Below, one piece after another: positions 4,939 through 63,443 of a stretch of DNA of 64,000 nt. How positions within the stretch are numbered: position 1 is the first letter of the stretch; each line of letters starts with the position of its first letter. The stretch is from Eubacteriales bacterium (GTDB lineage: Bacteria; Bacillota; Clostridia; Oscillospirales; CAG-272): contig JAZSPB010000156.1 in NCBI GenBank assembly GCA_045537235.1, forward strand, positions 92,638 to 156,637. The letters run 5' to 3'. The position numbers and the translations under genes are program-made. Below the pieces are notes generated by a model that worked only from the letters and a program-made list of their open reading frames with translations, was not told the origin of the DNA and did not search any database.

Positions 4939-4989
4939 GATTGTATTTCCTCCTAAATAGTTATTGATATTAATTTATAATGTAGCCAA

Positions 4990-5553
4990 TCAGTTGGCAA
5001 CCTTAACCATTGCATAACGGATGACCTTATCACCCTTGGTATAGCCCTTCATCAAGACCTCTGTGATCTCACTCTCGCCATACTTCTCGTCATCCACGTG
5101 CATTACTGCATTATGGAATTTCGGGTCGAAGGTTTTTCCCACACTCTCAATTTCCCGAACGCCCAGTTTTTCTAACGTCTCGCGGAAGCTCTTGAGAGTC
5201 AGCTCCAATCCTTTGGAAAGCCCCTCCGCATCTTTGCAAGCCTCGGCGCGTTCCAAATTGTCAAGAACCGGCAAAATAGAAGTCAACACATCGGCACAGG
5301 CATCCCCGTAAACACCTTCACGTTCCTTTGCCGAGCGCTTGCGGAAATTGTCATACTCTGCAAGCATACGCATATACTTTTCGTTGATTTCATCAGCGCG
5401 GCGGTTGGCTTCTTCCAAGTCGCTTTCCAGCTTCTTGATTTTCTTTTTATCCTTGTCGCCCGATTTGGACGCTTTAGTCTTTTCTTCTTTCTCCGCCTCG
5501 GAGGAAAGCTCCTCGTTAAGCTCTTGATTTTCAGTTGTCTTGTTTTCCTGCAT
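4990..5553 (-). CDS. grpE: Nucleotide exchange factor GrpE
   Basis: GrpE-like coiled-coil N-terminal half and a C-terminal beta domain (HNAVMHV...GYTKGDKVIRYAMVKV). I moved the start to the ATG at 5553 (MQENK), which has GGAGGG 8 nt upstream. The ORF-track start at 5589 has no RBS. Confidence 0.9.
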   Translation of the reverse strand: MQENKTTENQELNEELSSEAEKEEKTKASKSGDKDKKKIKKLESDLEEANRRADEINEKYMRMLAEYDNFRKRSAKEREGVYGDACADVLTSILPVLDNLERAEACKDAEGLSKGLELTLKSFRETLEKLGVREIESVGKTFDPKFHNAVMHVDDEKYGESEITEVLMKGYTKGDKVIRYAMVKVAN

Positions 5554-6616
5554 TTTTTGTTCCCTCCGGAAGTTTCTTGTTGTTTTCATCTATGATGTTA
5601 GCAATGTTTTCGCCAAGCTCCTCGACCGTTGCCAAAACCTTGGCATAGTCCATACGAAGCGGGCCGATAACACCAATGGCTCCCACTGTATGTCCGTTCT
5701 TTTTGATCGGTTTAAAAATGACCGAAGAATTGTTCATCACATTAACCGAACTTTCCGATCCGATAATCACGTTAACATCATCATCCGCCGTCTCGCCGGA
5801 TACCAAATTCAGAATATCCTCCTTGTGCTCAATAGCCGTCAGCAATTGGCCAAAGCGCTCGGAATCCGAGAATTCGGGATATTGAAGCAATCGATTCAAG
5901 CCGCTGATACGAAGCTCTCCATCCTCCACCTCGTTCATAGTGTCGTATATCACCTTAATGATCGGACGGATCAGCGTTGCATCCTCCCCCATTTCATCCT
6001 CTAACTTCATGAGGATGGGGAGTGTGATCTCATAATTGGATAAACCTGCCAAATTGTCATTAAGAACTTTATTGGTCTTTTCCAAAAGCGCGGGAGAGAC
6101 CTCACAAGGAAGAGAGATCTTTCGTGTTTTCACGGTTCCGCCGGCGGTGATCATGACCAACAGGATCCGAAATTCATCGATCTCTATTGCTTCAAATTTG
6201 GAAAAGCTCAAAGATGTGAACTTGGGCTTAACGGCAAAACCGGTGTAATTGGTCATATTGGATGCCAGCTTGGTTGCCGTTTCAAGCATCTGATCCAACT
6301 CATTCATCTTGGATTTGAGAATTTGATTGATCTCAGAGACTTCTTTGGCCGTCATAGCATAATGCTGTACCAAGGAATCCACATAAAACCGATATCCCAA
6401 CTCACTGGGAATTCTGCCGGCCGAGGTGTGCGGTTTCTCCAAGAAGCCCATTTCCTCAAGTTCTGACATTTCATTACGGATGGTAGCAGACGAGCAACTC
6501 AACTGCCGATTTTCCACAATATACTTGGAACCAACAGGCTCACCGCCCGCAATATGAGCCTCCACAATTGCCTTTAGTATTAGCTTTTTTCTTTCGCTCA
6601 ATTCAGCATCGGTCAC
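5531..6616 (-). CDS. hrcA: Heat-inducible transcription repressor HrcA
   Basis: HrcA-like winged-helix N-terminus (LSERKKLILKAIVEAHIAGGEPVGSKYI...SSATIRNEMSELEEMGFLEKPHTSAGRIPS). I moved the start to the GTG at 6616, preceded by GGAGGTG. The ORF-track start at 6682 would run through the CIRCE operator. Confidence 0.9.
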   Translation of the reverse strand: MTDAELSERKKLILKAIVEAHIAGGEPVGSKYIVENRQLSCSSATIRNEMSELEEMGFLEKPHTSAGRIPSELGYRFYVDSLVQHYAMTAKEVSEINQILKSKMNELDQMLETATKLASNMTNYTGFAVKPKFTSLSFSKFEAIEIDEFRILLVMITAGGTVKTRKISLPCEVSPALLEKTNKVLNDNLAGLSNYEITLPILMKLEDEMGEDATLIRPIIKVIYDTMNEVEDGELRISGLNRLLQYPEFSDSERFGQLLTAIEHKEDILNLVSGETADDDVNVIIGSESSVNVMNNSSVIFKPIKKNGHTVGAIGVIGPLRMDYAKVLATVEELGENIANIIDENNKKLPEGTKNAGKQDN

Positions 6617-6675
6617 GCGTTTCCACCTCCGTTCTGTTGAAAAAAAGACTCGAAGCGGTAAATTACAACTTGGTT

Positions 6676-6702
6676 TTAGCACTCCTTTGCTTTAAGTGCT
6701 AA
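6676..6702. promoter_or_regulatory. CIRCE operator (HrcA binding site)
   Basis: TTAGCACTC-N9-AAGTGCTAA, one mismatch to the consensus TTAGCACTC-N9-GAGTGCTAA. It lies between the promoter and the hrcA start. Confidence 0.9.
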
Positions 6703-6712
6703 CCACGCTAAT

Positions 6713-6741
6713 AATTTACCATCTTTCAAGTCTTTTGTCAA
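6713..6741 (-). promoter_or_regulatory. Sigma-A-type promoter of the hrcA-grpE-dnaK-dnaJ operon
   Basis: Minus strand: TTGACA, 17 nt, TAAATT, with TGg immediately upstream of the -10. It sits just upstream of CIRCE. Confidence 0.65.
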
Positions 6742-6832
6742 GAATTATTTCTATTTATTTTTGTTAATATTTTATGAACTACAAAAAAATTCAGCGATTT
6801 TTAGCAAACCACCCACATTTTTTGCTAACTCC

Positions 6833-7762
6833 TTAAAGGACACTCTGCAAGAACTGTTGCAATCTGGGACTCTTGGGGGCGGAGAAAATCTCCTCGGGCG
6901 TTCCCACTTCCTCGATTTCGCCGTCAGCCATAAATATGATCTTATCAGCGACCTCTCTTGCAAATCCCATCTCGTGGGTCACGGCGACCATGGTCATTCC
7001 CTCATCAGCAAGTTGCTTCATGAGATCAAGAACCTCTCCCACCATTTCGGGGTCAAGTGCCGAAGTAGGCTCATCGAAAAGCATGACCTTGGGATCCATG
7101 GCAAGAGCGCGAATGATCGCCACTCTCTGCTTTTGACCGCCCGAGAGCCTGGAAGGATACTCATCGCGTTTTTCGGCAAGACCGATACGCTCAAGAAGCT
7201 CCATGCCTCTCTTTTCCGCTTCCTCCTGGGTCTTAAGCTTCAACTGCACAGGAGCCAAAGTCAAATTCTGCATTACCGTCAAATTGTTAAACAGATTGAA
7301 GTGCTGGAATACCATTCCCATTTTTTGTCGGGCAATATTGATATCAATTCCATTTTCGGTCTGGATCAACTTCAGTGCGTTCTTGTAGTCACCGCCCTCA
7401 TTTTTTTTCAAAAGTTCTTCCTGTATGACCTTATTAGTCAAATACCGTTTCAGCTCATCCTCGGAATATTTTGAAAATGCCGTGTCTTCTCCATAGGCTT
7501 TAAGAAGCTTTTGAAAGGTTCGGCTACTCTCAATTACTTCCGAATGAAGATACGGATCTGCGGGAGTCAGCAAGTTCTCTCCTACCCAAACCTCACCTCG
7601 GGTAGGCTCCTCCAAAAGGTTGATGCACCGCAAAAGCGTACTTTTTCCACCGCCGGATGGGCCGATAATAACCACTTGCTCGCCGGCTTCGATGTCGCAA
7701 GATACTCCGTGCAAAACCTTTATCTTCCCAAAATTTTTATATACATTTTTAACGCTTATCAC
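6833..7762 (-). CDS. Amino-acid ABC transporter ATP-binding protein (GlnQ/HisP-like) with a large internal insertion
   Basis: Walker [11 protein letters not shown]-loop MVFQHFNLF, signature LSGGQKQR and Walker [12 protein letters not shown]. About 75 extra residues lie between Walker A and the Q-loop. Confidence 0.9.
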
Positions 7763-8444
7763 TTGCTCTCATCCTCCTCTCAATAAGCTTTATAATTCCC
7801 GTGACAATCAGTATGAGTACGAGGTAAACAAGTGCAAGCACGATATACGGGATAATATACTCGTAAGTGCTGTTTGCAATATTTTGGAATGCCTTTGTGA
7901 TATCCACGATCGTGATAAAACTTACAACCGAGGTCTCTTTTAAAAGAGCAATAAACTCATTTCCCAATGTAGGAACAACATTTTTGATAGCCTGCGGAAG
8001 AACGATCTTTATCATGGTTTTTCCATAAGACAGACCAAGGGCGCGACCCGCTTCTGTTTGACCAATATCCACCGAAAGAATTCCACCTCTCATGATCTCG
8101 GAAACATAAGCACCCGAATTAAGTCCGAAAGCCAAGATAGCCTCGGTCAACAAGGGAATGTTAATGCCAAGCATGGGAAACAAAACATAGTGGATCAGCA
8201 ACAACTGAACAACCATTGGTGTGCCGCGAAAAATAGCAACGTATGTACTGGTTGCTCCGGATAAAACCTTAATCAGCTTATTGGTTCTCGGAAGAATCTT
8301 ACAAGTTGCCAAAAGACATCCGACGACCATTCCGATTAAAAGACCAAACACCGCTATTAAAGCGGTGTTCTTTAGTCCGGTTAAAACATTACGATAACCT
8401 TCGAGTTCAATAAGCTGTCTGTAAAAACTCTGCCAAGCCTCCAT
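7749..8444 (-). CDS. Amino-acid ABC transporter permease (His/Glu/Gln/Arg/opine family)
   Basis: 231 aa, multi-pass membrane protein with an EAA-like loop ([23 protein letters not shown]). It overlaps the ATPase gene. Confidence 0.9.
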
Positions 8445-8447
8445 AGA

Positions 8448-9317
8448 TTACTTGTTAGTGCTTTCCGCAATCATAATTGCAGGCTGCTTATCGAGAATAA
8501 CGGCATCAATCTTACCGTTTGCAAGATCGAGAATTGCCAAAGCACCGGTGGTATATCCCTTGGTTTCCAGATTCTTGAATCCATCATAACCAAAGTCCTC
8601 GTTACCCTCGGAATACATGTACCCGGTGGTTCCATTCTGCGTACCGACCTTAAAAGAAGACGCTTGCTCAGCCAACTTTGCCACGATATCATCTGCGCTC
8701 TTACAATCAGCAAAAACCTTATCGTTCTCGCGCACAACAAGAACCTGAGCAGACTCATAATACTCTGTCGTGAAATCGATGGACTTCTGACGCTCTTCGT
8801 TTACTGTCATACCGGCCATTCCAATGTCAGCCTCGCCGTTCTTTACGGAAATGATAACGGAATCAAACTCCATATCGTAGATATAAAGAGTCTTACCCAA
8901 CTTCTCAGCAAGAAGGGATGCGATCTTCATATCCACACCTGTAAGCTTGTTACCCTCATAATACTCAAAGGGAGGGAAATACGCGTTTGTGGCCACAACA
9001 AGATAGTTGTCTCTCTCTGTACCGGAAGGAACCGAGGAAACAGGATTCTCGTAAACAAAGTCAGAAGAACCATCGAAGAAAGAGTTAATAATTTTATCAA
9101 GCTCTCCGTTTTCCTTCAGTTCGGCAAGAAGAGCGTTGGCTGCTTCCTTAAGAGCGGTGTTTTCCTTGCCAACGGCAAAGGCATACTTTTCTGCAGTAAG
9201 CTCATAGGCGGTATAAACCTTCACCTTACTTTTCTCTGCGCCACCGCACGATGCAAATGCGGTCACACAGCCAAGCACCATAACCAGTGCAAGCACAAAT
9301 GTAATGATCTTTTTCAT
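8448..9317 (-). CDS. Amino-acid ABC transporter substrate-binding lipoprotein
   Basis: Signal peptide with a lipobox (TAFASC). Type-2 periplasmic-binding fold motifs are present (YFPPFEY...GVDMKIA...DSVIISVKNGEADIGMAGMTV). Confidence 0.88.
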   Translation of the reverse strand: MKKIITFVLALVMVLGCVTAFASCGGAEKSKVKVYTAYELTAEKYAFAVGKENTALKEAANALLAELKENGELDKIINSFFDGSSDFVYENPVSSVPSGTERDNYLVVATNAYFPPFEYYEGNKLTGVDMKIASLLAEKLGKTLYIYDMEFDSVIISVKNGEADIGMAGMTVNEERQKSIDFTTEYYESAQVLVVRENDKVFADCKSADDIVAKLAEQASSFKVGTQNGTTGYMYSEGNEDFGYDGFKNLETKGYTTGALAILDLANGKIDAVILDKQPAIMIAESTNK

Positions 9318-46397: not shown

Positions 46398-49300
46398 TTA
46401 TTTCAAAACAACCGTTTTGGTATCGATCACCTTTCCGGACAGATCCGTTAAGGTCACCGTAACCTCATCTCCACTCTTGGCGGTGATATCGGTTTCAATG
46501 ATAAAGTTTCCGGCAGTCTCAAAGGTGGTTGTATATTCCTTTGTGACACCGTTAGCTTTGACGGTAACCTTGTGAGAAGTCTCGTTGTGTCCGAGTTCCC
46601 AAACTTCCACACATATCTTGCCGTCCACCGAGATATCTGCGCCGTGAATGTTGGCATCGGACAAGGTGGCAAGGAACGGGAAGGCAGGCTGGCTAATGCT
46701 GTTCTCAAGGTTGCCTCCCAAGGTATCAGGTGCCCCTGACACCGCATAAGAGTTGACATAAGAATACTGAACTGCAACGGGATTCTTGATCGAGGTGGCG
46801 GTCACGACAACGGTATCTCCGACGATCGTCGCAGTGGCATCCACAAAGGTCTTGCCATTCGCACTGATCTTGAAGCCTGTCAGTTTGGTGTCGCCGTCCT
46901 TGATCTTAAGACCGTCGCCAATGTGTGAGAAGTGAAGGATGACTCGGTCTCCGTCTACCTCCATATACTCGTACATGGGACCGGTATATTCCGTCGTTCC
47001 TTCATAGTAGGTCTTGCCGTAAACAGTGGCGAGGATGGTCGCCGCCATACGGTTACCGACGGGCACCTTGGTTCCGGGATGAATGGTTCCACCCGTATCC
47101 TTGTCGTCAAAGGTTCCCTCGTATGCCGTAGAGATGACCTCCACATTGTTAAGACGTTTGGCGGTGTCGATCTGCACCTGGCGAATCTCGAAGAAGTTTC
47201 TTCCGCTACCCGCCGCGTACGGTGCCAACTGAACCAACATAATGGGAAGATTCTCATCTCTGAAATCCTCTCTCCATTGCTCGATCAAATCGTAAAGAAT
47301 GTAGTTGTACTGTTGAGCGATTCTGGCATTGGGTTGAGACTCACCTTGGTACCACATCACACCGGCAACGGCATAGTTGGCAAGGGGACCTTGCATTGCG
47401 TTGTACAGACCGGTGGGAGCAAATCTTCTTCCTGTGCTTCCCTCGGTACCGTTGATAAGGGTACCTGCCGCCTTGGTGGTTTTATAAATCTTTCCGAGAC
47501 TCCAGTAAAAATCGTAATCCTGCCACAGCGTTCTTCCCTCACAGCCCCAGTTATTTCTGACAGAGGGGAGAATGGAAGGATCGTTGTAGATAAATTCTCT
47601 GTCCGAAGCAAACAGCCGCTCATAGTTAAGCCATGCTTGCGCGGAGCTACCGCCCTCGTAACATTCGATAATTGCGACCGGCACTCCCAGCTCTGCTTGA
47701 ATCTGATAAGCAGAAATATAGGCAATTGCGGAAACACCGGAAACATTGGAAGCCGTGACCTGTTTCCATGCGCCGTTGGTAACGTCCTTTTGAAGCTCAT
47801 AGCTTGCCGTCACACCTATCTTAAAGCTTCTGACATCATAGTTTTTGGCACCCGAAACGATATCCGCTGTGTCAAAAACACTGCTCATTTTAAGCTCCAT
47901 ATTGGACTGACCGCTACAATACCAAACCTCACCGATGCCCACATTCTTGAAGGTCTTTCCCGCCACTCCGTTCTTGACCAAGAGCGTCTTGCCGGATCCG
48001 CCTTCCATTTCGGGAAGCTCTAAATAAAATTCACCGTTGGCATCTACCACTGAACTTGCGGTATATTGGTCGATCTCCGCCGTTATGGTATCACCGGGGG
48101 TTCCGCCCCAGCCCCAAATCGGCACTTTTTTATTTCTCTGCAAAACCATATCGTCCGCAAAAATGGACGGAAGTATTACTCCAATATTGGTATTCAGCAT
48201 AGCAAACTCCACCGTGAAATCATCAATATAAACTGTCTTGGGGAAATTGGTCGAAGAAGTTCCAAAGTTGATGAAGGGTCTTACGGGATAGTGTTCCTTG
48301 ATACTTGCATCATCAAAGACCAACTCGGTTTTTGATAGAAAATCCTTGGTGATATCCATCTCATATTCCACAAAAGTCCATTCACCCTCGTAAATATCAT
48401 AAGAAGTGTAGGCCAACTGTGTTGTCTTCTTATCTCCCATCAATCCGATAGACGAACTCACGGGCTTTGCGGGATCTTTAAAGCCCTCCATCAAAACATA
48501 AGCCGAGATCTTGACAGTCTGACCGATATAAGGTGTCAGATCCTTTGGCATCAGATTGTTGAGCTTGACTCTGGCACCGAAATCTCCGTTGGCGTTGGGT
48601 TGGAAATTATAAAGCGCCATTGCTTTGTCTCCCGAATGTGACTGCCAATTAAGCGCACCGACCTGAAGTAAGGAATTGGCGTAATTTCCGCCCATTTTAT
48701 ACTCATTGGCCGCATCGGTCAGCTCCGCATAAGTGGAGGTCTTATACTGAGTAAAAGAAGCATCGGCATTCTCAAAATCCTCGGTTTTATATACCGTATA
48801 CTCGGGCACATAGGCATCCTTGTGAAGAGAGGCCTTTACATCATCCACGTAGAAGGTACTGCAAAGATCGGATGCAGGTGCATCGACAGCCGCCGCTACG
48901 TTTTGGTCGATCTTGACCGTAATCAAGCCGGCAGCGGTATTTTCAGCGGTAACCTTATAGAACAAGGTGAGCTGATTCCATTCATTGGCTCGCAGCTCGA
49001 ACTTGTGCGACTCAGCCGCTGTATCGTCGGAGCCTTCTTTGGAAACCGACATTCTGAACGCAGCATTCTCACCGATCGGCATAACGTATGCGGTGATCTT
49101 ATAAGTCTTTCCGACATTTCTGGGGGTCATATACACCTCCAGAACATCCAAAACACCTACACCGCCATCAGCACTTGAAGATTCAACCTTGATGGATTGA
49201 TCTTTTGTACGAATATAAGCCTTGTCAGTATTGATGCTGACCTTGGCAGCGGGATTTCCCGCCACATAAAAGGGGTCGGGCTCCTTGTCGTCGCCGCCGG

Positions 49301-49475
49301 GAGCCGCTGTTTCAAATCCTTGTTCGGACTCCTCCGGATCGCTCTCACTCTCGCTCTCATTCGACTCGGATTCGGTGACCTCATGGGTATCCGTCTCGGA
49401 CTCCGTTTCTCCGCCGCAAGCGACAAAACTCAATAAAAGCGTGAATATCAAAAGAATGGATAATAGCTTTTTCAT
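46398..49475 (-). CDS. Large lipoprotein with N-terminal CBM-like beta-sandwich regions and a sialate O-acetylesterase-like (SASA/DUF303) domain
   Basis: Lipobox LLLSFVAC and an acidic linker. The SASA-type nucleophile motif GEVWYCSGQSNME and downstream GVMWYQGES are present. The C-terminal region is Ig-like. Confidence 0.75.
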   Translation of the reverse strand: MKKLLSILLIFTLLLSFVACGGETESETDTHEVTESESNESESESDPEESEQGFETAAPGGDDKEPDPFYVAGNPAAKVSINTDKAYIRTKDQSIKVESSSADGGVGVLDVLEVYMTPRNVGKTYKITAYVMPIGENAAFRMSVSKEGSDDTAAESHKFELRANEWNQLTLFYKVTAENTAAGLITVKIDQNVAAAVDAPASDLCSTFYVDDVKASLHKDAYVPEYTVYKTEDFENADASFTQYKTSTYAELTDAANEYKMGGNYANSLLQVGALNWQSHSGDKAMALYNFQPNANGDFGARVKLNNLMPKDLTPYIGQTVKISAYVLMEGFKDPAKPVSSSIGLMGDKKTTQLAYTSYDIYEGEWTFVEYEMDITKDFLSKTELVFDDASIKEHYPVRPFINFGTSSTNFPKTVYIDDFTVEFAMLNTNIGVILPSIFADDMVLQRNKKVPIWGWGGTPGDTITAEIDQYTASSVVDANGEFYLELPEMEGGSGKTLLVKNGVAGKTFKNVGIGEVWYCSGQSNMELKMSSVFDTADIVSGAKNYDVRSFKIGVTASYELQKDVTNGAWKQVTASNVSGVSAIAYISAYQIQAELGVPVAIIECYEGGSSAQAWLNYERLFASDREFIYNDPSILPSVRNNWGCEGRTLWQDYDFYWSLGKIYKTTKAAGTLINGTEGSTGRRFAPTGLYNAMQGPLANYAVAGVMWYQGESQPNARIAQQYNYILYDLIEQWREDFRDENLPIMLVQLAPYAAGSGRNFFEIRQVQIDTAKRLNNVEVISTAYEGTFDDKDTGGTIHPGTKVPVGNRMAATILATVYGKTYYEGTTEYTGPMYEYMEVDGDRVILHFSHIGDGLKIKDGDTKLTGFKISANGKTFVDATATIVGDTVVVTATSIKNPVAVQYSYVNSYAVSGAPDTLGGNLENSISQPAFPFLATLSDANIHGADISVDGKICVEVWELGHNETSHKVTVKANGVTKEYTTTFETAGNFIIETDITAKSGDEVTVTLTDLSGKVIDTKTVVLK

Positions 49476-49504
49476 AAAGATTCCTCCACTATATAATTGT
49501 ACTT

Positions 49505-49588: not shown

Positions 49589-49806
49589 GGGCGCCTGTGG
49601 GCGCGGGAGGTCGCTTTTTTGAAAAAAAGCTCCGCAAAAAACTTTTCTATTGCACCCTGCCGAATTTGAGCGAACATACTGCCCCCTAATGGGTATCGCT
49701 ATGTTCGCATAAACTACAATAAGGCGCAATAGAAAAGTTTTTGCGCACTTTCGAAGAAAGTGTGCTTTTCTTCAAAAAGCGACCTCCCCGCGCCCGCAGG
49801 CGCCCC
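49589..49806 (+). repeat. Long-hairpin intergenic repeat, copy B
   Basis: GGGCGCCTGTGGGCGCGGGAGGTCGCTTTTTTGAAAAAAAGCTCCGCAAAAAACTTTTCTATTGC ... GCGAACATA-loop-TATGTTCGC ... GCAATAGAAAAGTTTTTGCG...AAAAAGCGACCTCCCCGCGCCCGCAGGCGCC. It folds as one nested palindrome. Confidence 0.9.
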
Positions 49807-58390: not shown

Positions 58391-58576
58391 AGAGCCTTTG
58401 AAAAAACTCCGCAAAAATCTCTTGTCTTGCCCCCATGGTAGTGTTTGAGCCAACATACTGCTTCCATTAGGATATCAGTATGTTTGCCAAAACTACCAAA
58501 AAGAGCAGATCAAAAGTTTTTGCGGAGTTTTTTAGAGCAACAGACATTTTACAAAATGTCCTAATGCCGAAGGCGC
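58391..58576 (+). repeat. Long-hairpin intergenic repeat, copy D (shorter; outer GC-rich ends degenerate or absent)
   Basis: GAGCCTTTGAAAAAACTCCGCAAAAATCT...GTTTGAGCCAACATACTG-loop-CAGTATGTTTGCCAAAACTA...AAAAGTTTTTGCGGAGTTTTTTAGAGC. A weak match to the outer arm lies at 58558-58576. Confidence 0.8.
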
Positions 58577-58637: not shown

Positions 58638-61600
58638 TTAATCAAAACATTTGAGCGTCGGAGCCTGACCGTTTACGATGTTCCAAATCTCGGGGTCAAA
58701 ATACAAGGTGTTGAGAAGGAAATCTTTACTCAAAAGGACGGAAGTTGCCTTGGCTTCGCCTGCGGTACAGGTGGGGGTTACAGTGGTGTTGTTCTGTGCC
58801 ACATTTGCTTGATTGGAGTAATAGCAAGAAAGCACTGTTCCTTCTGTTTTTCCAAGGAACTTACCATAACCGACAGCAAGAGAAAAATTAACATCGCCCA
58901 AAGAAAAACATTTGGTGACAACCGCGCCGGCCTCATTATTGCCTACAAAACCACCAAGATAACCGCTGTCAGTTACAGCATTCAGAATGTTGACGGAAGT
59001 ATATACATTCTTTATAATTGCCTTATCTCCACTATTTAATCCAACGGCACCACCGCTGCAATTATATACACCATAGTCGCTATTTATTTGAGTGTTTGTT
59101 CCCGTAGAAAAGCTATCAAGAAGTGTACCGCGGTTTTCTCCAATCAATCCACCACTCCAATAGTTCTTTCCGGCATTTCCAACATATTTTACATCAAACG
59201 AAATATCCGCCATACATTCTCTAACTATAGCGGTTTCATCCGCTGTATTTTTTCCTACAATACCTCCAAGTACTAACTCCAAATGAGACCAACCAGCGGT
59301 ACCAACTGAAGACGATTTTGTTCCAACCAAAATGAACTCTGCTTCGCTCTTTTCAACAACATTTGTATTTAATCCTGCAATTCCACCAAAATAGGCATAA
59401 CAATAAATACTATATTTGTAATAACTACTCGTATATAGATAAATAGCCGAATCTACAGCGACTTCAAGGTGGCATTCGGAAATAACTCCATTATTGGTAC
59501 CAGCGACACCGCCCAAAATTGCTTGCCAATTCACTGCCCCATAGTGTTCAGAGTTATACGTATAGTCTATCTTGGCTGAAAGCACATCACAATTAATAAT
59601 ATTTCCTTCGTTAATACCGGCAATTACTCCCGTATTAGTGGAACTTACAGAATTGTTGGTTGTCGTTAATAAAACATTCTCGAATCCAACATTCTTAATC
59701 GTACCACTATTCACTCTAAAGAACCCAACATCAATTGCCGTGGTGGAAAGGGCGGATATAGCAAAGTTGTAAATCTTAAAACCCTTACCATCAAACGTAC
59801 CCGTAAACTTATCAATCGGTGTCCAGATATCGCCCTTGTAGTTAATATCGTTCCCCAGCACATAATTGCCCGACGGATTGGTTGCGATCGCGGCAAGCTC
59901 TTCGGCGGTCTTGATCACGATCATCTCGCCGCCCAACATCTTTGCGTAGATCGTGGTACTGGCATTCAGTGCATAGTCAAATTTATATTCTTTGGTAAAG
60001 GCACTGTCAAGATACCATCCCAAGAAAGCATAGCCACTCTTTACGGGATCGGCGGGTTTCGTGGGGATCTCGCCCTTATAAACCCCTTCGCTTGCGATCT
60101 GGGTTCCGCCGGCGGTGTTATAGGTGACAGTATACATCTGCTTAACATACTGCGCCTTTACCGTCATGTCAGCCTTCACCGAGCTGAATGACTTATCCCA
60201 TCCGCTGAAAGGGATATCGTTTACATAAGAAGGCATAGAGGGCGCCTTGGCAGACGTTCCGTAGTCAACACTCTGCACACTCACAACCTCGCCGTAATAA
60301 TCCAAGAAGGTCACCTTTACTTTGTTCGGTGTCCATCTTGCCACAAGCTTCATGTCGCCCATCACGGGATCGGTGGTAGTAAAGATACCGTCAACTACCG
60401 TCTTTCCCGTATACCAACCGTCAAAGGTATATCCCGTCTTGGTCGGCACGGTGAGGGCAACTGTTTGTCCGTGATTCACCTTGACACTGGACTGGTAACC
60501 TGCGGCGGCTGTACCTCCATTCAGGTCAAAGGTTACGGTATGCTTCAACAGACCGCCCGAAATAAATTCCTCTATCCATTGTTCTTCGGTTCCTGTATAG
60601 GAAGGATTCTTTTCAATATAAATTTCATAAGCGGACTTTCCGGGGGTACCTTGTGCACCTGCGGCACCTGTGGCTCCCGTATCACCCTTATCTCCCTTAT
60701 CTCCCTTGGCTCCATCCTCACCGTCCTTGCCGGTTGCTTGAACGTCAAGAGATGTCCAATTTTTGCCGCCATCGTAGGAAACTTCCCACATATTGGTGGT
60801 CTTATTGATCTTGATCTGAGGGGTAATACCATCGGTTCCGTCTTTTCCGTCTTTTCCGTCTTCGCCACGGTCTCCCTTATCGCCCTTATCGCCCTTATCG
60901 CCCTTGGCGCCGACAAGAGAGGTCAGCCACTGGGACTCGCTGCCCTTGTAGCCATTCTCCACGGCAAGCTCGTAGGCAGACTTTCCGTCCTCGCCATCCT
61001 CGCCGTCCTCACCGTCATTTCCGTTCTTACCGTTGGTTCCGACCAAAGACGCAAGCCATTCCTGCACATCGCCCTTGTAGCCATTCTCAACAGCAAGCTC
61101 GTAAGCCGACTTACCTGCCGCACCGTCTGTTCCGTTAACGCCTGCCGTTCCAACAAGCGAGGCAAGCCACTCTTCTTCGGTACCCTCAAAGCCAAGCTCA
61201 ACAGCAAGCGCATATGCAGACTGTCCGTCTTTTCCGTCGGCTCCCTTTTCTCCAACCAAGGAGGTCAGCCAAGACCGAATATCGCCTTCATAACCGTTTT
61301 CCACGGCGATCTCATAAGCGGATTTACCCGCCGCACCGACAAGCGATGCCAGCCAATCGGTCTCGGAGCCTTCGTAGCCTTTTTCCACGGCAAGCTCATA
61401 GGCAGAAGTACCGCCAGCGCCTGTTGCACCCGTTTCACCGACCAAAGAAGCCAGCCATTCGGTCATGGTTCCGCGGTAGCCGTTTTCCAAGGCCAACTGA
61501 TAGGCGGATTTTCCGTCGGCACCCACATCCCCCTTGTCACCTTTATCACCCTTATCGCCCTTCGCAGCGGCTGTTCCATCACGACCTACAAGTGACGCAA

Positions 61601-62132
61601 GCCACTCGGTCAAGGTTCCTTCAAAGCCGTTGTCGCAAGCAAGCTCATAGGCAGACTTTCCGTCCGCACCGTCTTTACCGTTGACGCCATCCGTGCCGAC
61701 AAGAGAATCCAACCACTCCGAAAGGGTGCCTCCAAAGCCTGTCTCCACGGCAAGCTCATAGGCAGATTTTCCGTCTGTTCCGTTGATTCCCGCGACTCCC
61801 ACAAGAGAGGAAAGCCACTCGCTCTCGGTACCCTTGTAGCCCTTTTCCACCGCAAGCGCGTATGCGGACTGACCGTCTGCACCGTTTTGTCCTGCGGCAC
61901 CTGTTTCGCCCACAAGAGAGGCGAGCCACTCTTCTACGGTGCCGTCATATCCTTTTTCCACGGCAAGCTCATAGGCCGACTTTCCGTCTGCACCCGTAGC
62001 GCCTTGCTCTCCCGTAGGACCTTGTTCGCCCTTCGGTCCTTGCTTTGCGCAGGAAGCAAACATACAAAGCACCATCATTGCAACGAGCATTATGGACACG
62101 ATTCTCACAATGCTACTCTGTCTTTTTGTCAT
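58638..62132 (-). CDS. Giant surface lipoprotein with collagen-like G-X-Y tracts, 11 tail-fibre-like SAYELAVE modules, three Listeria-Bacteroides (Flg_new) repeats and a GLUG-motif region
   Basis: Lipobox MFASC. GPKGEQGPTGEQGATG and GDKGDKGDKGD tracts are present, with repeated SAYELAVE.GY.G...EWL.SLVG modules. Flg_new-type repeats include TVTFDLNGG...GYTFDGWY. GLUG-like motifs include GGIAGLN, GGLIGEN and GGFVGNN. I moved the start to the ATG at 62132 (MTKRQSS), 8 nt after AAGGAGG. The ORF-track start at 62171 has no RBS. Confidence 0.85.
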   Translation of the reverse strand: MTKRQSSIVRIVSIMLVAMMVLCMFASCAKQGPKGEQGPTGEQGATGADGKSAYELAVEKGYDGTVEEWLASLVGETGAAGQNGADGQSAYALAVEKGYKGTESEWLSSLVGVAGINGTDGKSAYELAVETGFGGTLSEWLDSLVGTDGVNGKDGADGKSAYELACDNGFEGTLTEWLASLVGRDGTAAAKGDKGDKGDKGDVGADGKSAYQLALENGYRGTMTEWLASLVGETGATGAGGTSAYELAVEKGYEGSETDWLASLVGAAGKSAYEIAVENGYEGDIRSWLTSLVGEKGADGKDGQSAYALAVELGFEGTEEEWLASLVGTAGVNGTDGAAGKSAYELAVENGYKGDVQEWLASLVGTNGKNGNDGEDGEDGEDGKSAYELAVENGYKGSESQWLTSLVGAKGDKGDKGDKGDRGEDGKDGKDGTDGITPQIKINKTTNMWEVSYDGGKNWTSLDVQATGKDGEDGAKGDKGDKGDTGATGAAGAQGTPGKSAYEIYIEKNPSYTGTEEQWIEEFISGGLLKHTVTFDLNGGTAAAGYQSSVKVNHGQTVALTVPTKTGYTFDGWYTGKTVVDGIFTTTDPVMGDMKLVARWTPNKVKVTFLDYYGEVVSVQSVDYGTSAKAPSMPSYVNDIPFSGWDKSFSSVKADMTVKAQYVKQMYTVTYNTAGGTQIASEGVYKGEIPTKPADPVKSGYAFLGWYLDSAFTKEYKFDYALNASTTIYAKMLGGEMIVIKTAEELAAIATNPSGNYVLGNDINYKGDIWTPIDKFTGTFDGKGFKIYNFAISALSTTAIDVGFFRVNSGTIKNVGFENVLLTTTNNSVSSTNTGVIAGINEGNIINCDVLSAKIDYTYNSEHYGAVNWQAILGGVAGTNNGVISECHLEVAVDSAIYLYTSSYYKYSIYCYAYFGGIAGLNTNVVEKSEAEFILVGTKSSSVGTAGWSHLELVLGGIVGKNTADETAIVRECMADISFDVKYVGNAGKNYWSGGLIGENRGTLLDSFSTGTNTQINSDYGVYNCSGGAVGLNSGDKAIIKNVYTSVNILNAVTDSGYLGGFVGNNEAGAVVTKCFSLGDVNFSLAVGYGKFLGKTEGTVLSCYYSNQANVAQNNTTVTPTCTAGEAKATSVLLSKDFLLNTLYFDPEIWNIVNGQAPTLKCFD
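60912..61979 (-). repeat. In-frame tandem coding repeats (10 consecutive modules of about 28-50 aa)
   Basis: The modules are repeated at protein level: SAYELAVEKGYDGTVEEWLASLVG, SAYALAVEKGYKGTESEWLSSLVG, SAYELAVETGFGGTLSEWLDSLVG and so on. They are separated by G-X-Y spacers of variable length. An eleventh, degenerate module lies at about 60552-60640. Confidence 0.85.
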
Positions 62133-62176
62133 CGTAATGACCTCCTTTTTGAATTTCATAGAGGATGTCACTCCAG

Positions 62177-62193
62177 AATAACAATTATGTAGT
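62177..62193. repeat. Left inverted repeat of the candidate invertible promoter
   Basis: AATAACAATTATGTAGT is the exact reverse complement of 62359-62375. Confidence 0.9.
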
Positions 62194-62358
62194 ATGCTTT
62201 TTTGTTAAAAAGAATTTTTTCGCTCCAAAGTGCATAGCTTTTTGACCAATGAAAATTTTTTGTCTTTCATTGGTCTTGTTGCTATGTCTTTTTTGATATT
62301 TTTTCCTTGACAAATTGCTCGGTTGGTGGTATCATTTTATATGTATAGACGGAAATGC
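62194..62358 (+). promoter_or_regulatory. Candidate invertible DNA segment carrying a near-consensus sigma-A promoter, currently facing the + strand
   Basis: TTGACA (62307-62312), 17 nt, TGgTATCAT (62327-62335) on the + strand. An internal 11-bp-stem hairpin is GACCAATGAAA (62244-62254) / TTTCATTGGTC (62265-62275). Confidence 0.7.
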
Positions 62359-62375
62359 ACTACATAATTGTTATT
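62359..62375. repeat. Right inverted repeat of the candidate invertible promoter
   Basis: ACTACATAATTGTTATT overlaps the recombinase stop codon (62374-62376) by 2 nt. Confidence 0.9.
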
Positions 62376-63216
62376 ATGTTATTAACAGCAATCCCAACCT
62401 TTGAATCTGCCTTCGATGAACCTCACCGCTCTCCATTGTATATATCCTCGTGGTATTTACGCTGGAATGCCCGAGGATATCCGCGAGGCAGACAATATCC
62501 TTTTGTACAGTATAATAAGTGCGCGCAAAAATATGGCGGAGATTGTGGGGAAAAACCTTTTTCTCCGACACTCCTGCGAGCTTACACAACCTTTTCATGT
62601 CCGTCCATATATTAGAGCGATTCAGCGGATTCCCGTTTTTTGTCACGAAAACGGCTCCGCTTTTTATTTTTTGCTGACGGATATAGTTTTTCAGAATTTT
62701 ACAAAGTCCTTGTGGAAGAAATACACTTCGATGCTTCCCTTTGCAATGAATCTCCGCGCGCCCTCGGTTTACCGCCTCAACGGTGATATGTCTTAACTCG
62801 GAAACACGAATGCCGGTGGAGCAAATAGCTTGCATCAGCAAATACAGACGTTGATTTTTCTTTTGCTGCGCCGCTTTCAGCAATCGCTCATATTCGCTCT
62901 TGGTCAATTCCCTTTCATCGCTCGCAAAAAGTTGTTTTTGAATTTTGACCGTCTTGACTCGCAACTCATACCATTCGCAGTAGTCAAAAAAGCTGTTCAA
63001 TGATGACAGCGCAGCATTGACACTGGCAAGCGCATAGTGATCCAATAAAAAAGCCTTGTATCTCAAGACCGCCTCCTTATCCACCGATGCGCTAGGCAAC
63101 CAACGAAGAAACGCAACAATTTCGTGCATATATTTTTCAACCGTTGCCGCAGTCTTTTCCTCATAAAGCAAATATGTGCGATATTCGGCAAGCAACTCAT
63201 TTTTCAATTTTCTCAT
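62374..63216 (-). CDS. Small tyrosine recombinase (Xer/phage-integrase family), candidate invertase
   Basis: 280 aa with a SAM-like N-terminal domain, then STGIRVSELRHI (Arg), HNLRHIFART (H-x-x-R) and LGHSSVNTTRIYT (Tyr). Confidence 0.85.
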   Translation of the reverse strand: MRKLKNELLAEYRTYLLYEEKTAATVEKYMHEIVAFLRWLPSASVDKEAVLRYKAFLLDHYALASVNAALSSLNSFFDYCEWYELRVKTVKIQKQLFASDERELTKSEYERLLKAAQQKKNQRLYLLMQAICSTGIRVSELRHITVEAVNRGRAEIHCKGKHRSVFLPQGLCKILKNYIRQQKIKSGAVFVTKNGNPLNRSNIWTDMKRLCKLAGVSEKKVFPHNLRHIFARTYYTVQKDIVCLADILGHSSVNTTRIYTMESGEVHRRQIQRLGLLLIT

Positions 63217-63344: not shown

Positions 63345-63399
63345 AAGGACAGTTTTTGAAATTTAATAGAACACGTTACCTACCGACAGTAAAAATTGA

Positions 63400-63443
63400 G
63401 GGGTGTCTCAAATGCGATAAAAAGCATTTGAGACACCCCTTTT
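63400..63443 (-). terminator. Strong rho-independent (bidirectional) terminator after the partial upstream gene
   Basis: 16-bp perfect stem GGGGTGTCTCAAATGC (63400-63415) / GCATTTGAGACACCCC (63424-63439). TTTT follows on the + strand and TCAATTTTT on the minus strand. Confidence 0.85.

Follow-up and report, generated by a model that had tools for sequence, protein, structure and literature searches.

In the window, that is, the whole 64,000-nucleotide stretch of DNA analysed here, a long minus-strand gene next to a tyrosine recombinase gene encodes a mosaic of collagen-like, phage-fibre-like and adhesin-like parts, and the locus raises the question of what this protein is, how it might be displayed and whether its expression is switched. 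The best explanation appears to be a phase-variable, lipid-anchored, trimeric collagen-like surface fibre of an uncultured, monoderm gut Clostridia bacterium, to which we assign a probability of about 0.6; as a phase-variable surface protein the product is credible without being extraordinary.

Gene organization and lipid anchor

The open reading frame extends over 58638–62171 on the minus strand, and the ATG at 62132, chosen from the ORF list and a start-codon analysis, is the best start candidate, as the initial annotation had it, with an AAGGAGG just upstream.

58638–62132, minus strand: coding sequence (ORF list, start-codon analysis; Pfam, NCBIfam and PHROGs scans)
62141–62147, minus strand: Shine-Dalgarno sequence AAGGAGG, about 7–8 nt 5′ of the ATG at 62132 (direct reading)
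62049–62132, minus strand: signal peptide with lipobox F-A-S-C, Cys28 (sequence; homologues share the layout signal peptide-Cys-GXY)
58395–58533, no strand assigned: imperfect long hairpin with a T/U run (inverted-repeat search; RNAfold ΔG −71.4 kcal/mol, then U6)

The product has 1164 residues plus the stop, arranged as a lipoprotein signal peptide, a module/collagen array, a 3-beta domain, three Flg_new repeats and a GLUG β-helix. The architecture of the mosaic lipoprotein as earlier described is real: domain scans recover an exported protein with collagen-like tracts, a tail-fibre-type module, Flg_new and a GLUG β-helix, with the Collagen, Flg_new and Glug models above their Pfam cut-offs and the array similar to PHROGs tail-fibre families. 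The gene is flanked by murB and comEC on one side and by the recombinase and an ORF with an F5/8-type-C domain on the other, and the hairpin between the convergent gene and comEC is a probable bidirectional terminator. A reading of this hairpin as a miRNA was rejected, the Rfam matches being spurious and far under the gathering score.

The N-terminus, MTKRQSSIVRIVSIMLVAMMVLCMFAS followed by Cys, carries a charged n-region (Lys3, Arg4, Arg10) and a 17-residue hydrophobic core comprising residues 11–27, and Phe25-Ala26-Ser27-Cys28 form the lipobox, in line with the signal peptide originally proposed. Lipoproteins are defined by a lipobox of the form [LVI..][AST..][GAS]-C no further than ~35 residues from the N-terminus; the lipobox here lies in that range, the n-region is basic and the h-region uncharged, and we also take the N-terminus to fit the PROSITE PS51257 rule. 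Many homologues have an identical signal layout with G-X-Y starting directly after the Cys, and among the 120 best homologues a lipobox N-terminus is present in 41 and absent, as in phage fibres, in 58. Pfam and motif scans of the full protein revealed no LPXTG, SLH or HExxH motif, which agrees with the earlier remark on the missing LPXTG and SLH anchors, and attachment is probably via the lipid. Judged from the sequence, the protein is thus probably exported and lipid-anchored: the precursor would be exported by its lipoprotein signal peptide, Lgt/Lsp processing would follow, and the lipidated Cys28 would, as the motif suggests, hold the protein in the outer leaflet of the membrane. The Phe at lipobox position −3, where Phe is rarer than Leu, Val or Ile, counts against the lipoprotein reading.

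The module and collagen-like array

The signal peptide is followed by an array in which a 24-residue module, SAYELAVE.GY.G....WL.SLVG (searched for with the regular expression SAY..A....G..G....WL.SLVG), alternates with G-X-Y tracts.

60909–61979, minus strand: ten 24-residue modules with in-register G-X-Y linkers of 2–9 triplets (regular expression, identity matrices, alignment, AF2)
60564–60635, minus strand: degenerate eleventh module, SAYEIYIEKNPSYTGTEEQWIEEF (sequence, alignment, hmmsearch)
60735–60827, minus strand: small three-stranded β domain, residues 436–466 (AF2)
60836–60905, minus strand: perfect in-frame 9-nt microrepeats encoding GKD/GDK triplets (Tandem Repeats Finder)

The regular expression places ten canonical modules at residues 52, 89, 123, 160, 209, 243, 271, 305, 342 and 385, and the degenerate eleventh starts at residue 500; a local hmmsearch likewise counts 11, so that the eleven copies of the initial annotation are recovered, as are the tracts GPKGEQGPTGEQGATG, GDKGDKGDKGD and GEDGEDGEDG that it quoted. 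Over the whole array the tracts span 2–11 triplets, 64 triplets occur in runs of at least three, and the composition is rich in Asp, Lys and Glu and poor in proline (5 in 507 residues); the Pfam Collagen model (PF01391) scores 43.2 bits against a cut-off of 27.2. In the AF2 monomer each module is predicted as helix(7)-loop(6)-helix(8–9) with a pLDDT of 83–93, and the linkers remain below 50, as is expected of collagen in a monomer model. The β domain at residues 436–466, with three strands and a block pLDDT of 91–95, sits between the two longest tracts (10 and 11 triplets) and resembles, by description only, the '3-beta domains' of streptococcal phage Tal (PMC9437275). In phage fibres (E. coli prophage EPcl, PMC3368898; streptococcal Tal, PMC9437275) collagen segments are flanked by separate trimerising elements and by small 3-beta domains. 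The G-X-Y segments of the present protein, which are short (11 triplets at most) and nearly proline-free, count against a trimer, and the triple helix is putative.

All linkers hold the G-X-Y register across the module boundaries, every linker length being 3n+1, a pattern that is only suggestive of a triple helix. Residues 29–523 would probably come together in a segmented stalk of three identical chains, in which the short charged G-X-Y segments (2–11 triplets) form collagen-type triple helices and the eleven helix-loop-helix modules pack three-fold into small helical nodes. The nodes would nucleate the segments and keep their register, the segments probably being too short and proline-poor for stability alone, and the extended stalk would reach roughly 70–90 nm. 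Such trimer and node function is suggested by the collagen register, by the monomer prediction and by the occurrence of such module arrays in the trimeric tail fibres of phages.

An unlikely but serious alternative would make the protein a monomer that serves as a flexible fibrillar adhesin or spacer, in which the G-X-Y tracts are extended low-complexity linkers and the modules fold singly, with no triple helix or trimer. The brevity of the runs and the five prolines would suit such a protein, the AF2 monomer alone gives confident hairpins, and the solved structures matched by Flg_new and by the GLUG helix show these domains as monomers; however, a mere flexible linker would not readily account for a strict register over every module boundary, arrays of the same module are found in phage tail fibres, trimeric by established knowledge, and the hydrophobic core of a 24-residue hairpin would seem too small for stability alone.

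The modules had also been described as near-identical tandem coding repeats (60912–61979) with scope for length variation by slippage or recombination, of which the first does not hold and the second, given the divergence of the module DNA, has little support. The ten modules share 62–83% identity in protein (mean 72%) and 54–81% in DNA (mean 69%), the longest exact DNA word common to modules is 26 nt, and Tandem Repeats Finder sees no array of module period, only 9- and 18-nt G-X-Y microrepeats in 2–3.8 copies. The perfect microrepeats at 60836–60862 (3.0 copies) and 60874–60905 (3.6 copies) and a further 9-nt repeat at 60985–61016 (86% identical) are the sole plausible slippage substrates, and slippage in them could change the length by one G-X-Y triplet per step. 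The layout of anchor, repetitive stalk and distal binding domain is shared with fibrillar adhesins and periscope proteins (PMC9210967), but the stalk repeats here are not Ig-like. The periscope property of copy-number variation through highly identical repeats does not extend to this protein because its repeat DNA is on average only 69% identical, and the periscope or length-variable repeat class, defined by very high DNA identity, was rejected on the same mean and a maximum of 81%.

The promoter segment and the recombinase

The initial annotation had placed the gene behind a switch, and a promoter flanked by inverted repeats and a recombinase gene are indeed present directly upstream.

62174–62193, no strand assigned: gene-proximal inverted repeat, CAGAATAACAATTATGTAGT (repeat search, 19/20 complementary)
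62359–62378, no strand assigned: recombinase-proximal inverted repeat (repeat search; overlaps the recombinase stop codon at 62374–62376)
62307–62335, plus strand: promoter-like TTGACA-17 nt (ending TGG)-TATCAT (promoter scan, 11/12 plus extended −10)
62228–62289, no strand assigned: hairpin within the invertible segment (inverted-repeat search; RNAfold ΔG −23.8 and −21.8 kcal/mol)
62374–63216, minus strand: Xer-like tyrosine recombinase of 280 residues, directly upstream of the gene (Pfam Phage_integrase, 113.6 bits)

The inverted repeats are 20 nt each with 165 nt between them, and their 16-nt core occurs exactly twice in the window. The locus displays the full anatomy of an invertible promoter, namely inverted repeats, a short promoter-bearing segment, an adjoining recombinase and a regulated gene downstream, and it is from this anatomy alone that we infer inversion itself. 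As assembled, the strong promoter-like site is directed away from the gene, and inversion in silico brings it to 62245→62217 on the minus strand. Expression would thus be ON or OFF, with the sole good promoter lying in the 165-bp segment between the 20-nt repeats; the assembled orientation would be OFF, and inversion would put the promoter ~78 nt 5′ of the start codon. A U-rich tract follows the hairpin within the segment only in the reading that faces the gene after inversion, and in the ON orientation the hairpin may shield the promoter against transcription running on from the recombinase gene. The recombinase lies upstream of the gene on the same strand, and read-through from it could leave the gene partly expressed when OFF.

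At locus L002, the closest full-length homologue (43% identity across the whole length) is directly preceded by a small serine recombinase and a pair of 22-nt inverted repeats flanking 108 nt, and the segment between them holds a promoter-like site that likewise points away from the gene, an analogy that lends independent support to a switch at the present locus. A recombinase is absent from five of the seven homologous loci that were inspected, and phase variation is therefore not general in the family; four of these five have a divergent gene of ~80 residues upstream, which in three is a small XRE-type HTH by Pfam.

The opposite view, that the repeats are not a working switch, that the gene is constitutive or expressed via recombinase read-through and that the recombinase serves another purpose, is quite doubtful. 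The scarcity of recombinases at homologous loci would speak for it, as would the scores of the recombinase, which stay under the cut-off in all specific NCBIfam families, FimB/E-type invertases included (38.8 bits against 221). Nevertheless, by our own estimate chance would produce a 19/20 inverted repeat with this 165-nt spacing about 1e-4 times in the region, the repeats enclose the region's best promoter match and abut the recombinase stop codon and the 5′ UTR of the gene, and the analogous layout at L002 involves a different recombinase class.

A promoter switch at this locus would resemble fimS of E. coli (FimB/FimE), cwpV of C. difficile (RecV) and gut-microbiome invertons, where a segment with a promoter lies within short inverted repeats, between tyrosine recombinase and surface-protein genes; precedents from C. 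difficile are found in PMC5914908 and PMC5903667. It differs from fim and cwpV in that the recombinase is Xer-like and falls short of the FimB/E-type models, and in that the product would be a lipoprotein fibre, not fimbriae or the S-layer-type CwpV. The cwpV switch works by terminator formation and not by promoter orientation, whereas the inverted element here would be a promoter.

Module distribution and distal domains

The module is present in at least 19,721 protein clusters at E ≤ 1e-3 and in 853 at E ≤ 1e-30, with jumbo-phage tail fibres and many lipoproteins among the carriers and up to 38–39 copies per protein. The notion that it usually occurs once or twice is correct for the bulk of carriers but not for the high scorers, where arrays of 11 to 38–39 copies are common in phage-fibre-like proteins and lipoproteins alike; eleven copies are high but not unusual. 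A Pfam scan and a PDB search gave no family and no structural match for the module, and a literature search returned no description of this helix-loop-helix unit. A weak alignment to positions 10–30 of the 37 in the DUF2934 profile (PF11154) was considered and rejected: the protein scores 9.6 bits (E 0.95) against a gathering threshold of 22 bits, no single module passes, and many-module homologues pass only via summed sub-threshold matches, which amounts to a remote resemblance, not membership. In homologues the domains that follow the array vary (among them cohesin, SLH, LRR, fibritin-C and GLUG), as fits a generic stalk with interchangeable heads.

Similarity to tail fibres is limited to the module/collagen array, which matches PHROGs families 14726, 15437, 4440 and others with E-values of 1e-40 to 1e-86 and tail-fibre families of PHROGs down to 1e-117, and most of the 247 phage records with the module bear the annotation tail fibre or tail protein. 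The best phage matches are in Pseudomonas and Ralstonia jumbo phages, together with Listeria, Streptomyces, Staphylococcus and mycobacterial phages; the proposed tie to tail fibres accordingly stands and its restriction to Gram-positive phages does not. Fibres of jumbo phages (201phi2-1, phiKZ-like, Ralstonia RSF1/RSL2) contain the same arrays of 24-residue modules alternating with G-X-Y, but the present gene is chromosomal and its product, unlike phage fibres, carries a lipoprotein signal peptide; the product also has cellular-type distal domains and no baseplate-attachment N-terminus. That the gene belongs to a phage or prophage and encodes its tail fibre (receptor-binding protein), or is what remains of such a gene after recent domestication, is very improbable: although the array matches tail-fibre genes of many phages, the adjoining tyrosine recombinase is of the phage-integrase family and phage Tal likewise has 3-beta domains amid collagen tracts (PMC9437275), the neighbours are housekeeping genes (murB, comEC, uvrAB, dnaK, argS, recN) with no other phage gene nearby, a search of viral contigs found no relative with the full architecture, and the recombinase is short, Xer-like and placed beside a 165-bp invertible segment rather than att sites.

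Beyond the array, the protein continues with two further regions.

59928–60545, minus strand: three Flg_new / InlB B-repeat-type domains, residues 530–735 (Pfam, phmmer)
58641–59927, minus strand: C-terminal GLUG β-helix, residues 736–1164 (AF2, Foldseek, Glug motif)

The three Listeria-Bacteroides repeats noted earlier are found as two Flg_new stretches (PF09479; 112.1 bits against 27, E 1.3e-32) and a third repeat detected only as Flg_new_2 at residues 538–603, with 22.0 bits just under the cut-off of 23.6; TIGR02543 scores 55.2 bits against 20.95, and phmmer matches the region to Internalin B B-repeat structures. The β-helix-like GLUG region is likewise borne out: Glug (PF07581) scores 35.8 bits against 20.5, six GG[LIVFA][VAI]G motifs lie at residues 874–1060, and AF2 predicts a β-helix of ~430 residues with an all-β coil pattern (pLDDT 94.8, pTM 0.93). 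The best Foldseek matches in the PDB, 3n6z (E 1.9e-6) and 6xjb (E 3e-4), both with probability 1.00 and TM 0.30–0.38, are N-terminal helices of the IgA1-protease type, including that of the S. pneumoniae IgA1 protease, and the label 'IgA-protease type' is apt for a non-catalytic β-helix but not for a protease, no metalloprotease motif or domain being found. A secreted IgA1-protease-like (M26) enzyme in place of an adhesin is barely credible, for although Peptidase_M26_N matches weakly and the proteins most similar in structure comprise IgA1 proteases and a 'putative IgA1 protease', the M26_N match scores 18.2 bits, below its cut-off of 27.7, Pfam gives no M26_C match, the protein has neither HExxH nor an M26 catalytic domain and ends with the β-helix, and the structural similarity is limited to the non-catalytic N-terminal helix.

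In the lipid-anchored fibre that we favour, the stalk would lift the three Flg_new domains and the non-catalytic GLUG β-helix beyond the wall, with the helix as a putative binding head. Among fibrillar adhesins Flg_new is listed as a stalk domain and β-solenoids as candidate adhesive domains (PMC9210967). The NCBIfam models of Scl2, Scl1 and Lcl match the protein only partially, and assignment to the Scl1/Scl2 LPXTG adhesin class (NF038329 / NF038330) was rejected at 79.4 bits against 325 and 57 against 400, LPXTG being absent. Scl1/Scl2 of S. pyogenes, BclA of B. anthracis and Lcl of Legionella nevertheless resemble it in that a proline-poor, charged G-X-Y stalk carries a globular head away from the cell surface. 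In topology it is like BclA, which has its anchor at the N-terminus and its head at the C-terminus. The protein departs from Scl, BclA and Lcl in its probable lipid anchorage without LPXTG, in a collagen split by the modules into 12 short segments instead of the single long tract of the known proteins, and in a head that consists of Flg_new and the GLUG β-helix and not of a V-domain or a C1q-like domain.

Architecture of the cargo, a predicted lipoprotein

58638..62171, minus strand: open reading frame of the cargo protein, as given in the ORF listing

The cargo protein comprises 1164 residues when read from the ATG at 62132, which is the best start candidate because an AAGGAGG is located 7 nt upstream of it, and the start chosen in the initial annotation is thus upheld. 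The N-terminus, MTKRQSSIVRIVSIMLVAMMVLCMFAS followed by CAKQG, combines a basic n-region with a hydrophobic core of 17 residues and an F-A-S-C28 lipobox, which bears out the previously proposed lipobox signal peptide, and lipidation is predicted to occur at Cys28. LPXTG, SLH and HExxH motifs were all absent from the protein in a Pfam scan and motif search, in line with the earlier statement that there is no LPXTG or SLH anchor. The host is presumably monoderm, and the lipoprotein would therefore be exposed at the outer surface of its membrane.

The stalk is built of a 24-residue module, SAYELAVE.GY.G....WL.SLVG, which alternates with collagen-like G-X-Y tracts. Ten copies match the regular expression SAY..A....G..G....WL.SLVG (at residues 52, 89, 123, 160, 209, 243, 271, 305, 342 and 385), a degenerate eleventh, SAYEIYIEKNPSYTGTEEQWIEEF, begins at residue 500, and a local hmmsearch with a module profile likewise finds eleven copies, the number originally claimed. 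The linkers between the modules are 4, 10, 13, 19 or 25 residues long, always 3n+1, so that G-X-Y triplets run on without a break from the last Gly of one module through the linker to the Ser of the following one, except at a single A-for-G interruption; after module 10 come two longer tracts, with 10 and 11 triplets. In total, 64 triplets occur in runs of three or more, with D, K, E and A abundant and only five prolines within residues 29-535. All the G-X-Y tracts quoted in the initial annotation are present, and the protein belongs to the Pfam Collagen family with 43.2 bits against a cut-off of 27.2. In an AlphaFold2 monomer model based on a 60-sequence alignment, the module is predicted to form a helix (7 residues), a loop (6) and a second helix (8-9) with pLDDT values of 83-93, and the G-X-Y linkers fall below 50, as is expected for collagen modelled as a monomer. 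Between two collagen tracts, a three-stranded mini-domain is confidently predicted, ITPQIKINKTTNMWEVSYDGGKNWTSLDV (residues 436-466, window 60735-60827; pLDDT 91-95), and the equivalent position in the homologous metagenomic locus L002 is occupied by a TPYIGENGNWWIG motif. As modelled, the mini-domain recalls the "3-beta domains" located between collagen-like linkers in the Tal proteins of streptococcal phages (PMC9437275).

The suggestion of near-identical tandem coding repeats at 60912-61979 did not hold. Identity among the ten modules is 62-83% at the protein level (mean 72%) and 54-81% at the DNA level (mean 69%), no two of them share an exact DNA word longer than 26 nt, and Tandem Repeats Finder reported no array of the module period, only 9- and 18-nt G-X-Y microrepeats in 2-3.8 copies, two of which (60836-60862 and 60874-60905) are perfect. 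Since the modules have diverged as much in DNA as in protein, the duplications appear to be old and free of recent gene conversion, and therefore gain or loss of whole modules by slippage or homologous recombination should be rare, as judged from the sequence. The proposed length variation thus stands in a reduced form: change by whole modules is not expected to be frequent, but change by one triplet in the GDK, GKD or GED runs is realistic. The protein lacks the defining property of the periscope (length-variable) class.

Distal to the stalk, residues 530-735 form three Flg_new/InlB B-repeat domains, which matches the three Listeria-Bacteroides repeats initially recognized, and are followed by the GLUG region.

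Pfam matches of the cargo head (score; cut-off; extent or remark)
Flg_new: 112 bits; 27; two stretches
Flg_new_2: 22.0 bits; 23.6; third repeat, residues 538-603
Glug: 35.8 bits; 20.5
Peptidase_M26_N: 18.2 bits; 27.7; sub-threshold

Membership of Flg_new and Glug is accordingly clear. Six GG[LIVFA][VAI]G motifs are found within residues 874-1060, and residues 735-1164 are modelled as a regular all-beta coil (pLDDT 94.8, pTM 0.93; 34-sequence alignment), in agreement with the beta-helix-like GLUG region anticipated. Foldseek against the PDB ranked first both 3n6z ("putative immunoglobulin A1 protease BACOVA_03286", E 1.9e-6) and the N-terminal helix of the Streptococcus pneumoniae IgA1 protease (6xjb, E 3e-4), with a probability of 1.00 but TM scores of just 0.30-0.38. 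Among viral models, the best matches were giant-virus GLUG-type helices and a siphovirus "putative IgA1 protease", and classical tailspikes were not among the best. Since the cargo has no catalytic domain, the suggested likeness to IgA-protease-type proteins is limited to the non-catalytic helix, and an M26 protease function is rejected on the sub-threshold Peptidase_M26_N score together with the lack of both a catalytic domain and HExxH.

The putative promoter switch and its counterparts

62174-62193 and 62359-62378: switch inverted repeats, 20 nt each, 19/20 complementary, 165 nt apart
62307-62335, plus strand: the region's best promoter match, located inside the segment: TTGACA-17-TATCAT plus an extended -10 TG

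The cargo locus has the anatomy of an invertible promoter. The 16-nt core of the inverted repeats occurs exactly twice in the window, and a gene for a 280-residue, Xer-like tyrosine recombinase, read from the cargo strand, has its stop codon overlapped by the distal repeat. The recombinase scores 113.6 bits with Pfam Phage_integrase and reaches the cut-off of no specific NCBIfam family. As assembled, the promoter faces away from the cargo and a promoter scan found no comparable one facing it, so the assembly represents the OFF state. Inversion in silico brings the promoter to 62245->62217 on the cargo strand, approximately 78 nt 5′ of the ATG, and the 165-bp segment probably inverts. Inside the segment, a hairpin (dG about -24 kcal/mol) precedes a U-tract in the ON-sense reading only, in which it would halt read-through from the recombinase gene directly before the ON promoter. 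A possible third recombinase site at 49488-49503 has three mismatches, is consistent with chance and was discarded.

Several other structured elements are present in the window. A short way 5′ of the recombinase gene, a perfect GC-rich stem of 17-18 bp, flanked on each side by T-runs (63398-63441), resembles a bidirectional terminator and would insulate the recombinase-switch-cargo unit from the upstream ORF with an F5/8-type-C domain. At the other end, an imperfect 133-nt hairpin (58395-58533, dG -71 kcal/mol), accompanied by T-runs in either strand, separates the convergent comEC and cargo genes and is probably a bidirectional terminator for both; Rfam matches at 58397-58537, to plant miRNA precursor models only, were far below the gathering score and were rejected as generic long-hairpin matches. 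Nested inverted repeats at 49589-49805 (42 nt at 79% with a 23-nt core at 87%, enclosing 20 nt at 95%) are intergenic, 5′ of a 1025-residue SASA-esterase/Big-domain ORF (46398-49475 on the minus strand) and 3′ of a gene for an ECF-like sigma factor; they show no sequence relation to the switch repeats and may be either another invertible element or a large hairpin with a regulatory role.

Seven loci that share the cargo's overall architecture were compared, and five of them have no recombinase. Four of these five carry a divergent gene of approximately 80-96 codons just upstream of the cargo homologue, and its product has an XRE-type HTH according to Pfam in three cases, the exception being L084.

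Divergent small genes upstream of cargo homologues in metagenomic loci
L001: 5284-5878
L083: 3572-3814
L084: 3639-3881
L086: 3569-3859

A metagenome scan with a narrower alignment added one full-length relative, L087, and distant GLUG proteins, all of them without a recombinase. The four loci with a divergent small gene suggest that conventional transcriptional control is the commoner state for the family.

The closest full-length homologue, in L002 (ENA ERZ27271072 k141_287131, 4357-8795), is 43% identical from the modules to the shared C-terminal PTLKCFD and is located directly behind the gene of a 203-residue serine recombinase. A pair of 22-nt inverted repeats (4982-5003 and 5112-5133) flanks 108 nt with a promoter-like TTGACT-17-TGnTAAAAT, which likewise faces away from the gene, and from its sequence the locus looks like a second, independent inverton of the family with the other class of recombinase. 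Since these two genes, the most alike of all, have recombinases of different classes, they seem to have recruited ON/OFF control independently, although with n=2 this is a lead and not a rule. At 5780-5900, an out-of-frame deletion within a module (GKDGSA/VEK..) divides the L002 gene into the overlapping ORFs 5156-5899 and 5802-8795. Either the assembly may have collapsed between repeats, or a genuine deletion between modules may have produced a pseudogene.

A proposed switchable segmented fibre

In the most likely mechanism, the cargo would be a lipid-anchored, probably homotrimeric, segmented fibre, in which three-fold helix-loop-helix nodes staple short collagen triple helices in register. 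The extended stalk would measure about 70-90 nm, as calculated from approximately 200 G-X-Y residues of 0.29 nm with the nodes added, and would display the Flg_new domains and the GLUG beta-helix as an adhesive, binding head, with expression switched by inversion of the 165-bp promoter segment. We give this mechanism as a whole a probability of roughly 60%.

Such a protein would work like the bacterial collagen-like surface proteins Scl, BclA and Lcl and like fibrillar adhesins; its matches to the NCBIfam models of the collagen-like adhesins Scl1, Scl2 and Lcl are partial and far below threshold, and it is not of the Scl type. Surface proteins that are phase-varied by tyrosine recombinases are well known, as in fim and the cwpV and flgB switches of Clostridioides difficile. 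What is new is the combination of a phage-fibre-borrowed stalk of segmented collagen and helix hairpins with a lipid anchor and an inverton. If correct, the model adds a third anchoring and architectural solution for bacterial collagen-like surface proteins, namely lipid anchoring combined with a segmented stalk that has helical nodes, which extends known themes and does not overturn the current understanding. The closest homologue seems to have gained control of this kind through a recombinase of another class, a hint that turning the protein off has been selected for repeatedly.

The locus would also be a concrete case of a surface fibre under invertible-promoter control in a poorly sampled gut Clostridia lineage. 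The sampling is evident from UvrA, which is at most 76% identical to its relatives (the best from uncultured gut "Eubacteriales bacterium" MAGs), from an exact look-up in a 153-billion-gene index, where neither cargo nor recombinase is on record, and from the best cargo homologue being just 42-43% identical. Genome contigs scanned with the C-terminal half of the cargo yielded no relative.

The module family in phages and bacteria

The module is clearly associated with phage tails. In PHROGs, the cargo matches many tail-fibre and tail families with E-values down to 1e-117 and 5-10 matched stretches each, and tblastn of the module array against 50,697 phage records matched 247, most of them annotated as tail fibre or tail proteins. 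The link to tail fibres proposed in the initial annotation is therefore sound, but not its restriction to Gram-positive hosts, as jumbo phages infecting Pseudomonas (phiKZ-like, 201phi2-1) and Ralstonia (RSF1, RSL2) match best, and phages of Listeria, Streptomyces, Staphylococcus, Lactobacillus and mycobacteria come next. The cargo itself does not qualify as a phage tail fibre. A prophage origin is rejected, since no phage genes are found near the cargo and viral contigs hold only distant relatives of its beta-helix; the window is chromosomal and carries dnaK, uvrA, uvrB, argS, recN, xseA, murB and comEC.

Protein clusters with the module (eleven-module profile against 1.84 billion representative proteins)
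E<=1e-3: 19,721
E<=1e-10: 4,912
E<=1e-30: 853

The top protein of the search has 39 matched stretches, and 77 of the 227 proteins retrieved have at least eleven copies; the module was said to occur usually once or twice, and while most carriers do have few copies, eleven is unexceptional. Pfam has no family for the module. Its sole resemblance there, DUF2934, was dismissed, with the cargo reaching 9.6 bits and homologues passing the whole-protein cut-off only by summing sub-threshold per-module matches. When its profile was run against all PDB sequences, just two matches came back, both at chance level (E 0.31 and 1.4; an unrelated AROM polypeptide), and the module is therefore in no solved structure; a literature search on the module, DUF2934 and the domain combination of the cargo found nothing relevant, its matches being names of authors or "GLUG" in other senses. 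That a module so widespread has neither a curated family nor a structure is also new.

The homologues fuse an N-terminal array to various distal domains (GLUG helix, cohesin, SLH, LRR, DUF4988, fibritin-C), and among the best 120 the N-terminus is a lipobox in 41, otherwise signal-like in 21 and without a signal, like phage fibres, in 58. At the sequence level, both patterns fit an array that would be a generic stalk with interchangeable heads. A wider reading is put forward tentatively and seems doubtful in its full extent: the module may be an undescribed node that trimerises short collagen triple helices and sets their register, present in at least 19,721 clusters and exchanged between jumbo-phage tail fibres and Clostridia surface lipoproteins, in which case phage-type segmented fibres would serve bacteria as long phase-variable appendages. 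Switching would have arisen repeatedly, by way of a tyrosine recombinase in this locus and of a serine recombinase in that of the closest homologue, and the likely pressure would be the targeting of the fibre by phages or host immunity. If the fibre model itself is right, this large uncurated domain family, common to phage fibres and cell-surface proteins, deserves a structure, and the module could act as a compact natural "staple" in the design of short collagen triple helices.

Finally, seven of the homologous metagenomic proteins (P0008, P0016, P0025, P0031, P0035, P0041 and P0048) carry the module/collagen array fused to cohesin and/or SLH domains, and thus some cellulosome-type or S-layer-anchored proteins appear to use a stalk of the phage-fibre type.
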